Shown: positions 27,072-33,818, counted from the stretch's first letter. The stretch is DNA of 64,000 nucleotides from Alphaproteobacteria bacterium (GCA_020054105.1 JAGVLW010000107.1:4645-68644); one strand, 5' to 3'. A program made the numbers and translations. The notes: generated by a model from the sequence alone, not told the origin.

Positions 27072-27326
27072 TCAGGCCGTCTCGACCAATAACGTACAAC
27101 GCTCGGGCACGATCTCGGCGACGCCGCCGGAGATCGCAAATTCGCGCTTCTCGCCGTTTTCCAGCTCGACGCCGACGATGCCAGGCTGGAGCATGGCTAC
27201 CGTCGGCGCGTGTCCCGTCAGCACGCCGAACTCGCCTTCGGCGCCGGGAATCTGGACATAGGCCGCTTCGCCTTCGAAGAGGATTTTTTCGGGAGTGATT
27301 ATTTGGGTAGTGATACTATTCGTCAT
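27072..27326 (-). CDS. atpC: F1 ATP synthase epsilon subunit, N-terminal beta-sandwich domain only (84 aa)
   Basis: ITPEKILFEGEAAYVQIPGAEGEFGVLTGHAP...ISGGVAEIVPERCTLLVETA matches the epsilon N-terminal domain. The start is moved to ATG 27326. The stop falls where the C-terminal helical hairpin normally begins. Confidence 0.8.
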   Translation of the reverse strand: MTNSITTQIITPEKILFEGEAAYVQIPGAEGEFGVLTGHAPTVAMLQPGIVGVELENGEKREFAISGGVAEIVPERCTLLVETA

Positions 27327-27328
27327 AA

Positions 27329-27406
27329 TGCCTCGTAATCGTGCCTTGTGCCTAGTGCCTTGTGCTTCGTATTTCGAGGCACGAGACACGAAACACTAGG
27401 CACTCG
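27329..27406. repeat. Family B-related heptamer inverted array (B3), fills the atpD/atpC intercistronic gap
   Basis: The left array is GTGCCTT GTGCCTA GTGCCTT GTGCTTC GTATTTC. The right array is GAGGCAC GAGACAC GAAACAC TAGGCAC. There is a perfect 10-bp pairing, GTGCCTAGTG/CACTAGGCAC. Confidence 0.85.
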
Positions 27407-27407
27407 C

Positions 27408-28835
27408 TTAAGCTGCTTCCGCCGCCATTTTCTTCGCCTTGGCGACCGCCTCGTCAATGCCGCCGACCATGTAGAAGGCCGCTTCCGGCAAATCGTCATA
27501 CACGCCGGCGCAAATGTCTTTGAAGCCTTTGATCGTATCGGCAAGCCCCACCAGCTTGCCGGGCGAGCCGGTGAATACTTCCGCCACGTGGAACGGCTGC
27601 GACAGGAAGCGCTGAATCTTGCGCGCGCGGGCGACGACAAGCTTGTCTTCTTCCGACAGCTCATCCATGCCCAGAATCGCGATGATGTCTTGCAGCGATT
27701 TATAAGTCTGCAATATGCGCTGCACTTCGCGCGCAACCGCATAATGCTCTTCGCCGATCACTTGCGGGTCGAGCACGCGCGAGGTCGAATCGAGCGGATC
27801 GACCGCCGGGTAAATGCCAAGCTCGGCGATCTGGCGCGAAAGCACGGTGGTTGCGTCGAGATGCGCGAAGCTGGTCGCCGGGGCCGGGTCGGTCAAATCG
27901 TCGGCAGGAACATAGACGGCCTGCACGGAAGTGATCGAGCCTTTCTTGGTCGAGGTGATGCGCTCTTGCATCTGCCCCATGTCGGTCGAAAGCGTCGGCT
28001 GGTAACCCACCGCCGACGGAATGCGGCCGAGCAGCGCCGACATTTCCGAGCCGGCCTGCGTGAAGCGGAAGATGTTGTCGATGAAGAAAAGCACGTCCTG
28101 GCCTTCCTGGTCGCGGAAATATTCGGCCTGCGTCAATCCGGTCAGCGCCACACGCGCGCGCACTCCCGGAGGCTCGTTCATCTGGCCGTAGACCAGCGCG
28201 ATTTTCGATTTGCTCGGGTCGTCCTTATTGATAACGCCCGATTCCATCATCTCGTGATAGAGATCGTTGCCCTCGCGCGTGCGCTCGCCGACGCCGGCAA
28301 ACACCGACACGCCGCCATGCGCCTTGGCGATGTTGTTGATAAGCTCCATGATGAGCACGGTCTTGCCGACGCCGGCGCCGCCGAACAGGCCGATCTTGCC
28401 ACCCTTCACATAGGGCGCCAGCAGATCGATGACCTTGATGCCGGTGACTAAAATTTCCGTCTTGGTCGACTGGTCGACGAAGGAGGGTGCTGCGGCGTGA
28501 ATCGGCGCCGTCTGTTTATGGCCTACCGGTCCGCGCTCGTCGATCGGCTCGCCGATCACGTTCATGATGCGCCCGAGCGTGGCGCGGCCCACCGGCACCG
28601 AGATCGCCGCACCCGTATCGGTCACTTCCTGGCCGCGCGTCAGGCCGTCGGTGGCGTCCATGGCGATGGTGCGCACTTCCGATTCGCCCAAATGCTGCGC
28701 CACTTCGAGCACCAACGTCTTGCCGTCGTTCTTAGTGGTCAGCGCGTTTAGGATCGCGGGCAATTTGCCGCCCGCGAATTTCACGTCCACTACCGCACCC
28801 ATGACCTGGGTGATGATGCCGTTATTGTGCGCCAT
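27408..28835 (-). CDS. atpD: F1 ATP synthase beta subunit
   Basis: GGAGVGKT Walker A, DELSEED-type motif (MDELSEEDK), full-length beta sequence. Confidence 0.97.
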
Positions 28836-28957
28836 GAGAGATGTCCTTATAGGTTGCTATGGAGGCGTTTTCTCTACAATAGCACCGCCCGCCTGTCAAT
28901 GCAGGAAGCAGCCTTCGTGTAAAGGCGGATTATTCGGGAGCCAAAGCGGGATATGGA

Positions 28958-31477: not shown

Positions 31478-33004
31478 CTACCCGAACCTCTTCACCAGCG
31501 TTTCGATCATCGCCTTGAGCTTGGCCTCGTCGGTGTCGGTGAGCACGGATTTGGCGGTGATTTCGGCGATCACATCCTTGTCGGCGCGCAGCTCCGTAAG
31601 CAGCGCCGTTTCGAATTTTCCGACATCTTTGGTGCCAATCTTATCGAGATAGCCCTTCACGCCGGCGTAAATCACGCAGACCTGCTCGGCGGTCGAAAGC
31701 GGCGAATATTGCGGCTGCTTGAGCAGCTCGGTCAGGCGCGCGCCGCGGGCGAGCAGCTTTTGCGTCGCCGCGTCGAGGTCGCTTCCGAACTGCGCGAACG
31801 CTTCCATTTCGCGGTATTGCGCGAGCTCGAGCTTGATCGAGCCTGCGACTTGTTTCATCGCCTTGATCTGCGCCGCCGAACCTACGCGCGACACGGAAAG
31901 ACCCACGTTTACCGCCGGGCGCACGCCCTTATAGAAAAGTTCGGTTTCCAAAAATATCTGGCCGTCGGTGATCGAGATCACGTTGGTGGGAATATAGGCC
32001 GACACGTCGCCCGCCTGGGTCTCGATGACCGGCAGCGCCGTCATCGACCCGGCGCCTTGCGCGTCGGACATTTTGGCGGCGCGCTCGAGCAGGCGCGAAT
32101 GGATGTAAAATACGTCGCCGGGATAGGCTTCGCGTCCGGGCGGGCGGCGCAGCAGCAACGACATCTGGCGGTAAGCGACCGCCTGTTTGGAAAGATCGTC
32201 GTAAATGATGAGTGCATGCATGCCGTTATCGCGGAAGAATTCGCCCATGGTCGCGCCCGTATATGGCGCCAGGAATTGCAGCGGCGCCGGTTCCGACGCG
32301 GTGGCGGCGACGACGATAGTATATTGCAGCGCGCCGGCCTCTTCGAGTTTCTTGACGACTTGCGCGACCGTCGAGCGTTTCTGGCCGATGCAGACATAGA
32401 TGCAATAAAGTTTTTTGCTTTCGTCGCTGCCGGCATTGATCGCCTTTTGATTTAAAATCGCGTCGATGGCGATCGCAGTTTTGCCGGTCTGGCGGTCGCC
32501 GATGATGAGCTCGCGCTGGCCGCGGCCGATGGGGATGAGCGCGTCGATGGCCTTGATGCCGGTCGACATCGGCTCATGCACGGATTTGCGCGCGATGATG
32601 CCCGGCGCCTTCACTTCCACGCGCGAACGTTTGACGTCTTTGAGCGGCCCTTTGCCGTCGATGGGATTGCCCAGCCCGTCGACCACGCGGCCAAGCAAAC
32701 CTTTGCCGATGGGGCAGTCCATGATGGTGTTGGTGCGCTTTACCGTGTCGCCTTCTTTGACTGAGCGGTCGTCGCCGAAAATCACCACGCCGACATTGTC
32801 GGCAGCCAGATTGAGCGCCATGCCTTTCATCCCGCCGGCAAATTCGACCATCTCACCGGCCTGGATGTTTTCCAGCCCGTAGACGGTGGCGATACCGTCG
32901 CCCACCGCCACTACCTGACCGGTTTCCGAAAGCTCGGCATCGGCGGCGAAATTAGCGATCTGTTTTTTCAGAATGTCTGAAATTTCCGAAGGGCGGATGT
33001 CCAT
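31478..33004 (-). CDS. atpA: F1 ATP synthase alpha subunit
   Basis: GDRQTGKT Walker A and full-length alpha sequence. Confidence 0.97.
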
Positions 33005-33027
33005 TTTAGTCTTTCTCCTTATTGTAA

Positions 33028-33114
33028 GAGGAAATGAAGAATTGAGGAATTGAAGATAATGAGGAAACGCTAACTTAAATTCCTCAATTCCTCAGTTCTT
33101 CATTTCCTCAATTC
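33028..33114. repeat. Family A octamer inverted array (A6), in the atpH/atpA spacer
   Basis: GAGGAAATGAAGAATTGAGGAATTGAAGATAATGAGGAAA - CGCTAACTTA - AATTCCTCAATTCCTCAGTTCTTCATTTCCTCAATTC. Confidence 0.9.
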
Positions 33115-33152
33115 ATCTATGCCGTTTTCAATTTCTGTCCCAATCTTTCGAG

Positions 33153-33668
33153 CTACCCGGCCAGCGAGCCGTCGAGCTGCTGGCTGCCGATGTTTATGAC
33201 GACGCCGCCGAGCAGGCTGGCATCCTGGCGCGTACTCAGCGCGATTTTCTTGCCGTAGAGCTTGCCGAGCTTGGCGGCAACCAGCGCGGCTTCGCTTTCG
33301 GCGGGCTTGCCGGCGGTGACCATCTCGGCTTTCATTTCGCCGCGTTCATGCGCCGCCATGTCGGAAAACAACTCCGCAGCTTCGGCCACCAGGGCAAGGC
33401 GCTTCTTGAGGGCGAGCAATGCGATAAAACGCGTGGTCAGCGGATGCGCGCCGAGGGTCTTGAGCAATTTTTCTATCGCTTCTTTCTGCTCTTCGCGGCT
33501 AATCACCGGGCTCATGGCCAGATCGTGCAGCTCCTCGCTATGCGCCATCATTTCGGCAAAGCTGCGCAAATCGCTTTCGATCACGGCGACGATTTTTTGT
33601 TCGCCGGCAATGTCAAACAACGCCTTCACATAGCGCTGGGCAATCTGTCTGGAACCGGAATTTTTCAT
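33153..33668 (-). CDS. atpH: F1 ATP synthase delta (OSCP) subunit
   Basis: IAQRYVKALFDIA at the N-terminus and LLGGVVINIGSQQLDGSLAG at the C-terminus are typical OSCP. The start is moved to ATG 33668. Confidence 0.85.
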   Translation of the reverse strand: MKNSGSRQIAQRYVKALFDIAGEQKIVAVIESDLRSFAEMMAHSEELHDLAMSPVISREEQKEAIEKLLKTLGAHPLTTRFIALLALKKRLALVAEAAELFSDMAAHERGEMKAEMVTAGKPAESEAALVAAKLGKLYGKKIALSTRQDASLLGGVVINIGSQQLDGSLAG

Positions 33669-33818
33669 GGGTTTGCGGCAGGGGTTGGTTCGGGGAGTCG
33701 GCAAATTAGGCAAATTTCCCCGCAAAGGCAATGGGAAAATAAGGGGACGGGATTCGGCGTGACAATGGTTTCCTTGCCTGCTATCAGTTAATTCATATTA
33801 ACTATACGGTAGGGGCAC

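Follow-up and report, generated by a model that had tools for sequence, protein, structure and literature searches.

Organization of the F1 ATP synthase operon

The stretch of DNA studied here, 64,000 nt from an alphaproteobacterium (Alphaproteobacteria bacterium, GCA_020054105.1, JAGVLW010000107.1:4645-68644; hereafter referred to as the window), carries on its minus strand an F1 ATP synthase operon that is accompanied by three additional open reading frames (ORFs), orf145, orf343 and orf126, and by several hairpin-forming repeats. Read along the minus strand, the order of these elements is atpH, a hairpin designated A6, atpA, orf145, atpG, orf343, atpD, a further hairpin designated B3, a short atpC, and orf126. 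All coordinates refer to the window, and the genes were assigned from the ORF listing, from Pfam matches and by direct reading of the sequence. The delta/OSCP subunit is encoded by atpH (33153-33731; Pfam OSCP, E 5e-40), the alpha subunit by a complete atpA gene (31478-33004; Pfam ATP-synt_ab_N, ATP-synt_ab and ATP-synt_ab_C), and the gamma subunit by a complete atpG gene (30080-31036; 318 aa; Pfam ATP-synt, E 2e-99). The beta subunit is the product of an equally complete atpD gene (27408-28835; recognized by Pfam), whose translation contains both the Walker A motif (GGAGVGKT) and the DELSEED sequence, and atpC (27072-27326) codes for a short, 84-aa form of the epsilon subunit that is matched by the Pfam model ATP-synt_DE_N only. 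orf145 (31037-31474) is located between atpA and atpG, orf343 (28958-29989) between atpG and atpD, and orf126 (26676-27056) on the 3' side of atpC. The spacers measure 148 nt (atpH-atpA), 90 nt (atpG-orf343), 122 nt (orf343-atpD) and 81 nt (atpD-atpC), and 15 nt separate the atpC stop codon from orf126. This gene order, together with the spacers of 148, 90 and 122 nt, had already been given by the original prediction, which a model had made from the DNA of the window, and it agrees exactly with the ORF listing, the Pfam assignments and our reading of the minus strand. The ORF listed for atpH begins at a TTG codon; its true start is probably the ATG at position 33668, where the translation matches the N-terminal pattern MKxxG..IAERY of the related proteins. 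A promoter-like site (TTGTCA-18-TATTTT; 33765-33736, minus strand) was found ahead of atpH by a consensus scan.

For comparison, related loci were collected through a scan with AtpG in which one genome per species was retained; this resulted in 80 loci (designated by L numbers), and the closest of these stem from metagenome bins that are labelled 'Rickettsiales' in public records. The five genes atpH-A-G-D-C of the window were all assigned by Pfam, are encoded on one strand and follow the canonical order, an order that is kept in nearly all of the 80 related loci. The P-loops of the alpha and beta subunits and the DELSEED sequence of the beta subunit are legible in the translations, and the identities to the closest orthologues amount to 88-91% for alpha, 90-93% for beta and 63-70% for gamma. 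Furthermore, the neighborhood priA...atpHAGDC-orf126-yggS-porin is collinear with that of L001, L004 and L005. Full-length genes with their expected domains, intact motifs, the high identities of alpha and beta and the shared flanking synteny thus mark the atp operon of the window as an orthologous operon under normal constraint, and the relaxed constraint that the original prediction had envisaged as one way to account for its unusual features finds no support in five complete F1 genes. In one of the related loci, L044 (Midichloriaceae), no atpD gene was detected within 10 kb after atpG, and the sole atpD match there is a weak cross-hit on atpA.

orf145 in the atpA-atpG junction

orf145 is a secreted-type orphan ORF. 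It starts 3 nt past the atpA stop codon, and its own TAA stop codon abuts the ATG of atpG (TAAATG). Its GC content is 0.47 and its GC content at third codon positions (GC3) is 0.50, whereas the GC3 values of the atp genes range between 0.73 and 0.80; among 50 long ORFs of the window (median GC3 0.75, 5th percentile 0.53), orf145 falls below the 5th percentile. Its deduced N-terminus resembles a signal peptide (MQKLFYVIAILVMAMPAAAQA/AP). The initial description of orf145 as secreted and AT-richer than its surroundings is therefore borne out. No family match was obtained for orf145 in Pfam, PHROGs, PADLOC and NCBIfam (models for defence and phage proteins included), nor was a homologue retrieved by a word-indexed search of 5.8 billion proteins. 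The AF2 model of the protein is poor (pLDDT 51.5), and a fold search with it yielded nothing meaningful.

A comparison of the junction with its empty counterpart in L001 is instructive with respect to translation. In L001, an AAGAGG sequence within the 3' end of atpA serves atpG, while in the window the same sequence lies 13 nt before the ATG of orf145 and atpG is left with only the TAAATG abutment for initiation. Since AAGAGG now precedes orf145, we infer that orf145 would be translated from the former ribosome-binding site of atpG, and atpG itself by re-initiation. With its base composition, its N-terminus and its position, orf145 is most likely a recently acquired passenger whose product would reside in the periplasm.

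The orf343 family and its genomic address

A word-indexed protein search with orf343 returned no match at all. When HMMER was used to search all 1.84 billion cluster representatives, exactly two other proteins were recovered, P0003 (395 aa; E 3e-34) and P0004 (249 aa; E 6e-30), and a profile search of metagenome contigs with the resulting family added solely the locus L083. The three proteins of this family are about 43% identical in every pairwise comparison. In L081 and L083, which represent one organism, the gene order is priA-atpH-atpA-atpG-X-atpD, with X being the orf343 homologue; the contig of L082 opens within the last codons of atpG and continues with the orf343 homologue and then atpD. 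Hence, in all three lineages from which the family is known, the gene resides between atpG and atpD. Collections of phages, plasmids and viral contigs contained no relatives of orf343. The two contigs L081 and L083 belong to one assembly, and across 2.6 kb their sole difference is a 12-nt indel affecting the Gly-rich tail encoded by the orf343 homologue (GGGSGFGGGG against GGGGRGGSGFGGGG), which suggests slippage.

The orf343 protein of the window contains an internal duplication in the form of an extra copy of an RR(F/Y)YLS(E/K)ARL module and ends in an RGG-like tail. Its AF2 model, built from the three sequences, is of moderate quality (pLDDT 70.5) and consists of repeated strand-strand-helix units. 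Among its best structural neighbors in both PDB and BFVD, LAGLIDADG and Hint-associated endonucleases are prominent; LAGLIDADG entries dominate the PDB list, with E-values of at least 0.14 and TM-scores up to 0.23. They likewise appear in the list obtained with the unrelated and poor orf145 model, and we treat the likeness as a lead. No Pfam nuclease family was matched by any of the three family members at E-values up to 10; orf343 had no sequence match in the PDB, a conserved acidic motif is not evident in the family alignment, and searches of Pfam, PHROGs, PADLOC and NCBIfam (again with defence and phage models included) gave no match. By eye, the strand-helix modules recall the wing of excisionase-type winged-helix proteins, but Pfam gave this likeness no support, and we regard it as a mere lead. 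Neither orf145 nor orf343 nor orf126 belongs to the zeta/DUF1476, Atp11/Atp12 or AtpI families as judged by Pfam and NCBIfam. We take the orf343 product to be a cytoplasmic nucleic-acid-binding protein that would serve its own cassette or its own regulation, rather than being a subunit of the enzyme.

Two promoter-like sites, both oriented along the minus strand, flank orf343. P1 (TTGGCA-17-TAAAAT; 30022-30050; consensus scan 10/12) precedes the gene and has an AT-rich tract upstream; its 17-nt spacing is preserved in L083 and L082, as is a second hexamer of the form TA(A/G)(A/G)(A/G)T. P2 (TTGACA-17-TAGAGA; 28871-28899) is situated 35 nt upstream of the atpD ATG and forms a block conserved in three lineages: L083 and L082 share with the window, without any change, its hexamers, its flanks GCATTGACAG and TGTAGAGAAA, and its spacing, while divergence is seen in the remainder of the orf343-atpD spacer and in the proteins (43% identity). 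Their conservation and their agreement with the promoter consensus point to P1 as a candidate promoter for orf343 and to P2 as a putative restart promoter for atpD-atpC.

Segment-wise scans of identity along AtpA, AtpG and AtpD revealed no mosaic near the orf343 insert. The C-terminus of AtpG and the N-terminus of AtpD from the window are closer to those of L004, L002 and L003 than to those of L082 and L083, so that nothing indicates an import of orf343 together with flanking DNA.

Cargo in the F1 junctions of related loci

In L001, L002 and L004, the junctions are empty: the atpA-atpG spacer has a length of 3-12 nt and the atpG-atpD spacer one of 20-22 nt. With only 3-22 nt present at the junctions of these closest relatives, orf145 and orf343 stand out as true additions. 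Of the three ORFs that the original prediction had called foreign, these two are lineage-specific features that break up the operon; orf126, which is found downstream of atpC in six relatives, is not foreign.

A tree calculated from AtpA, AtpG and AtpD of 82 loci, with which a smaller IQ-TREE run agrees, groups the window with L004, L002 and L003 (support 97) and places L082 and L083 as nearby sisters; together these form part of an 8-locus clade (support 96) within an 18-locus clade bearing the 'Rickettsiales' label (support 100). In this clade, 10 of the 18 loci carry an insert of 200 nt or more at the atpA-atpG or the atpG-atpD junction, compared with 7 of the 64 loci outside it (Fisher p 1.8e-4, in a test that treats related loci as independent). 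On the tree, at least seven changes are required at atpA-atpG and at least nine at atpG-atpD. The distribution of the orf343 family would call for either two gains or a single gain with three or more clean losses, and it is compatible both with ancient vertical inheritance followed by loss and with repeated acquisition at a specific site.

The cargo found at these junctions is of diverse nature. Within the clade, Pfam identified a DUF4258/DUF2283 pair in L003 and L005, Rap1a and MNT/HepT genes in L003 (with the Rap1a gene positioned between atpG and atpD), a DUF2610 protein in L008, and a gene for a 23S_rRNA_IVP four-helix-bundle protein in L006 (1477-1896). By sequence likeness, further 23S_rRNA_IVP genes are present in L008 (2168-2599) and L069 (3999-4388), and a 61-aa fragment is found in L038 (6646-6831); these genes of the 23S-IVS type in four relatives occupy two different F1 junctions. 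Outside the clade, three Phreatobacter loci carry a gene for a 150-aa membrane protein, L026 and, as judged by sequence likeness, L039 one for an Ohr-family peroxiredoxin, and two Sphingomonadales loci genes for small proteins whose N-termini resemble signal peptides. Hence, known types of small insertions (23S-IVS proteins, toxin-antitoxin pairs and immunity genes) serve as cargo of relatives at the very same F1 junctions. In its format as a small secreted passenger, orf145 resembles the Rap1a gene of L003; unlike the 23S-IVS, toxin-antitoxin and immunity cargo, neither orf145 nor orf343 matches any of those families. What is widespread in the clade is not the gene order of the window itself, a possibility that the original prediction had considered, but the use of the same junctions by different cargo. 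A literature search on inserts in atp operons returned nothing relevant.

L005 (9862-10033) has two copies of the 33 nt with which atpG begins (ATGCCTAGCCTCAAAGACCTTAAAGTCCGCATT), one on either side of a palindromic element that measures about 110 nt and closely follows the DUF2283 gene; this duplication reads as the footprint of a rearrangement at the junction. Another long palindrome of L005 occurs in both its atpH-atpA and its atpG-atpD spacer.

The short epsilon subunit and orf126

The epsilon subunit encoded in the window consists of the beta-sandwich only; it ends with ...LLVETA, and the C-terminal helical hairpin is absent. No remnant of the C-terminal domain is present after atpC, as only 15 nt lie between its stop codon and orf126. 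The same shape is found in L003 (78 aa) and L005 (about 79 aa), and all three proteins stop at the final sandwich strand; the helical hairpin is kept in L001, L004, L008 and L028, so that both long and short epsilon forms occur within the clade of the window. An 89-aa epsilon protein is, in addition, encoded by two Sphingomonadales loci, L077 and L080, which marks the C-terminal domain as having been lost in at least two distant alphaproteobacterial lineages, and NCBIfam maintains an epsilon model with 88 positions (NF009983). Most alphaproteobacterial epsilon subunits have been described as C-terminally truncated, with the hairpin being dispensable in these bacteria, and the inhibitor of the alphaproteobacterial enzyme is the zeta subunit rather than epsilon (PMC9317440). 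Between the short epsilon protein of the window and those already known (NF009983; PMC9317440) no essential difference is apparent; both consist of the sandwich only. The truncated atpC gene, originally listed among the lineage-specific oddities of this operon, can accordingly be regarded as coding for a heritable and known variant that is tolerated in alphaproteobacteria.

orf126 was detected by tblastn on the downstream side of atpC in L001, L003, L004, L005, L008 and L028. In five of these six loci it is adjacent to atpC, and in L003 it is displaced to about 2.8 kb downstream. The alignment of the proteins has the core LDxINPLQxxPxVSxxYR...GGxLxGGPxG, and no family match was found in Pfam or NCBIfam. 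We consider orf126, from this distribution, to be a conserved clade-specific neighbor of the operon and not an insertion. After the short atpC of L003, a gene (13734-14711) codes for a 325-aa protein whose N-terminus resembles a leader of the type IV pilin type followed by a helix; it opens with an ASERASERASERASE repeat, and this opening part is probably repeat-encoded.

Hairpin-forming repeats

Four repeat elements of the operon form hairpins on the minus strand. A6 (33028-33109), a hairpin built from octamer units of the GAATTGAG family (family A), lies in the atpH-atpA spacer (folding energy -43 kcal/mol, z -4.0). A5 (30783-30850; z -4.4), likewise of family A, is inserted in frame into atpG, to which it adds about 19 residues; D5 (30337-30383; z -2.3), a heptamer (GTCGCTC) hairpin, is also read in frame and falls into the second of the variable regions of this gene. 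B3 (27341-27403; -35.9 kcal/mol, z -5.6) is composed of heptamer units (GTGCCTN) and occupies the atpD-atpC spacer. Each of the four folds better than shuffled sequence, and the family A octamer has 22 matches at six sites of the window, with none expected by chance. A further family A hairpin (26588-26680; no strand assigned) is situated between the convergent ends of orf126 and yggS, where it overlaps the yggS stop codon; it could function as a two-way terminator. The A5 insert is missing from all relatives in the atpG alignment, both in-frame inserts of the gamma subunit fall into gap-rich regions of variable length, and L003 and L005 possess longer and different inserts at the D5 site.

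Arrays with a period of 7-8 nt were detected by Tandem Repeats Finder at about 22 sites between 2 and 36.5 kb of the window, and none was found from 37 to 64 kb, so that the repeat load differs sharply between the two halves of the window. Because the density of such arrays is about 0.6 per kb both inside the atp operon and across the first 37 kb, the repeats are not enriched in the operon. Of the four repeat elements that had been singled out at the start, the reality is thus assured, while their supposed accumulation in the operon dissolves into the local background.

In relatives, strong hairpins of unrelated sequence (z -5.1 to -6.3) are present at the same cistron boundaries: between atpH and atpA in L003, L005 and L083, between atpD and atpC in L003 and L005, and between atpG and atpD in L005. 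Their recurrence at fixed junctions with unrelated sequence suggests that junction hairpins may have a role at the level of the mRNA, for instance in its stability or processing. A comparison with Rfam yielded no matching family for the hairpins of the window and only sub-threshold look-alikes of microRNAs. Rickettsia palindromic elements (RPE) and REP-type intercistronic hairpins offer themselves as a system for comparison. As in these, the multi-copy palindromes of the window occupy spacers but are also read in frame within essential genes (atpG, priA and yggS), and hairpins are found at cistron boundaries; the arms of the window hairpins, unlike those of RPE and REP elements, are made of tandem units of 7 or 8 nt.

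Two further orphan ORFs, orf219 (plus strand) and orf116 (minus strand), with GC3 values of 0.56 and 0.45, respectively, are located between priA and atpH (33819-34832). Family searches in Pfam, PHROGs, PADLOC and NCBIfam provided nothing usable for either of them. The corresponding gap contains nothing in L004, about 2 kb of other DNA in L002, and an unrelated 128-aa ORF with a signal-peptide-like N-terminus in L001.

Junctions of the F1 operon as probable landing sites for foreign genes

Taken together, we regard the operon of the window as the functional and presumably single F1 operon of an uncultured alphaproteobacterium, and we consider it probable that small foreign genes have repeatedly landed in the F1 junctions across this clade and that the window carries two such units, orf145 and orf343. 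In the scenario that we propose, orf145 would be a recent foreign gene that lodged exactly in an atpA-atpG spacer of 3-6 nt, where it starts behind the AAGAGG sequence, hands translation over to atpG via TAAATG, and would thereby be expressed as a passenger of the operon. orf343 would represent a self-contained cassette made up of the AT-rich tract with P1, the gene itself, and P2, the last of which would restore the transcription of atpD-atpC downstream of the insert. The junctions might be favored because their highly conserved flanks could act as recombination arms and because strong constitutive expression would be provided there. The functions ascribed to the cargo proteins and this explanation for the preference for junctions are suggestions.

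Several observations weigh against such a scenario. P1, P2 and the translational coupling of orf145 and atpG are predictions; no fold or family match backs any particular activity for orf145 or orf343, and the fold searches with orf343 gave no significant match (best E 0.14 in PDB and 0.02 in BFVD). With a GC3 of 0.64, close to the lower quartile of the native genes, orf343 does not look like a recent arrival, and neither a mobility gene nor a target-site duplication nor a flanking mosaic that would speak for a mobile origin was found at its junction. The test for the enrichment of inserts in the clade counts related loci as if they were independent. Moreover, a strict address between atpG and atpD, maintained by proteins that have diverged to 43% identity, is what one would also expect of a dedicated partner of ATP synthase.

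This last point leads to a different explanation, namely that orf343, and possibly orf126 as well, was recruited into the operon as a lineage-specific factor with an accessory or regulatory role in ATP synthase, for example for the control of atpDC from P2, or for the assembly or inhibition of F1 where the regulatory domain of epsilon is missing. Besides the constant position of every known family member, the conserved P2 site directly downstream of orf343 and the near-native GC3 of this gene fit such a role, as do the window epsilon protein without its C-terminal domain and the persistence of orf126 after atpC in five relatives from two subclades (and about 2.8 kb further downstream in a sixth). 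Like the supernumerary regulators of the F-ATPase (alphaproteobacterial zeta, mitochondrial IF1 and the C-terminal domain of epsilon; PMC9317440), orf343 and orf126 are lineage-restricted and genetically tied to ATP synthase, and they occur in a lineage in which epsilon has no inhibitory domain. However, L004 and L002, members of the same four-locus clade as the window, manage without orf343 and have an atpG-atpD spacer of 20-22 nt, as does the slightly more distant L001; L003 carries unrelated cargo in this slot; and L003 and L005 combine a short epsilon protein with the absence of orf343, so that the two traits are unlinked. Nor does orf343 resemble zeta, IF1-like or Atp11/Atp12 proteins or the members of another family, and we regard recruitment as an accessory factor as rather unlikely. 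Still less likely, in our view, is the idea of orf343 as a selfish gene, site-specific in the manner of free-standing homing endonuclease genes, that targets the atpG-atpD junction of genomes devoid of it and is copied in by repair on the conserved atp flanks. Its patchy distribution on the tree (two gains, or a single gain with three or more losses), the clean empty sites, the predicted possession of both an own and an outward-facing promoter, and the prominence of LAGLIDADG and Hint-associated endonucleases in both fold lists would all be in keeping with this idea. Yet the fold hits lack significance, with TM-scores of about 0.13-0.22; LAGLIDADG entries in the orf145 list as well make it probable that they are background; no nuclease family or acidic motif came to light; AtpG and AtpD show no mosaic of co-conversion; and phages, plasmids and viral contigs harbor no relatives.

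Free-standing homing endonuclease genes, such as the seg and mob genes of T4-like phages, reside between conserved genes. orf343 resembles them in being a single gene with a predicted promoter of its own, placed in the spacer between two highly conserved genes, and present or absent among close relatives at exactly one site; it differs from them through the lack of a nuclease motif, family or significant fold, the lack of co-conversion, and its host, a bacterial chromosome. A more speculative variant, to which we assign a modest chance, is that the orf343 family constitutes an undescribed, junction-specific element of the F1 operon, a cassette for which the atpG-atpD spacer would be the homing target or the route of exchange. 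It would bring a promoter of its own and a conserved outward promoter to repair the polarity that it would otherwise cause; if this were true, orf343 would be a selfish gene that has adapted to a life within an operon ranking among the most conserved in biology. Very improbable, finally, is that the whole operon represents a paralogue that decays under relaxed constraint, or that its arrangement is an artefact that arose when a metagenome bin was assembled. Although the operon is unusually dense in extra features and the source genome is metagenome-derived, all five genes have full length and intact motifs, the alpha and beta subunits are 88-93% identical to their orthologues, the flanks (priA upstream, orf126-yggS-porin downstream) agree with those of relatives, the insert junctions are exact and in translational register, and the arrangement with orf343 was found independently in two other assemblies.

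We therefore return to the junctions as landing sites for cargo as the reading that we prefer. The F1 operon is usually seen as a fixed block; in this clade, its junctions would be a hotspot for cargo that is taken up without loss of the genes for the enzyme, and the window would provide a natural example of foreign genes riding on an essential and highly expressed operon. Two modes of keeping such an operon working are predicted side by side, a translational hand-over in the case of orf145 and a restart promoter in that of orf343. New in itself is the orf343 family, which has no name as yet, is extremely rare and is tied to a single genomic address; it offers a clean test case for distinguishing a new site-specific selfish gene from a new partner of ATP synthase.

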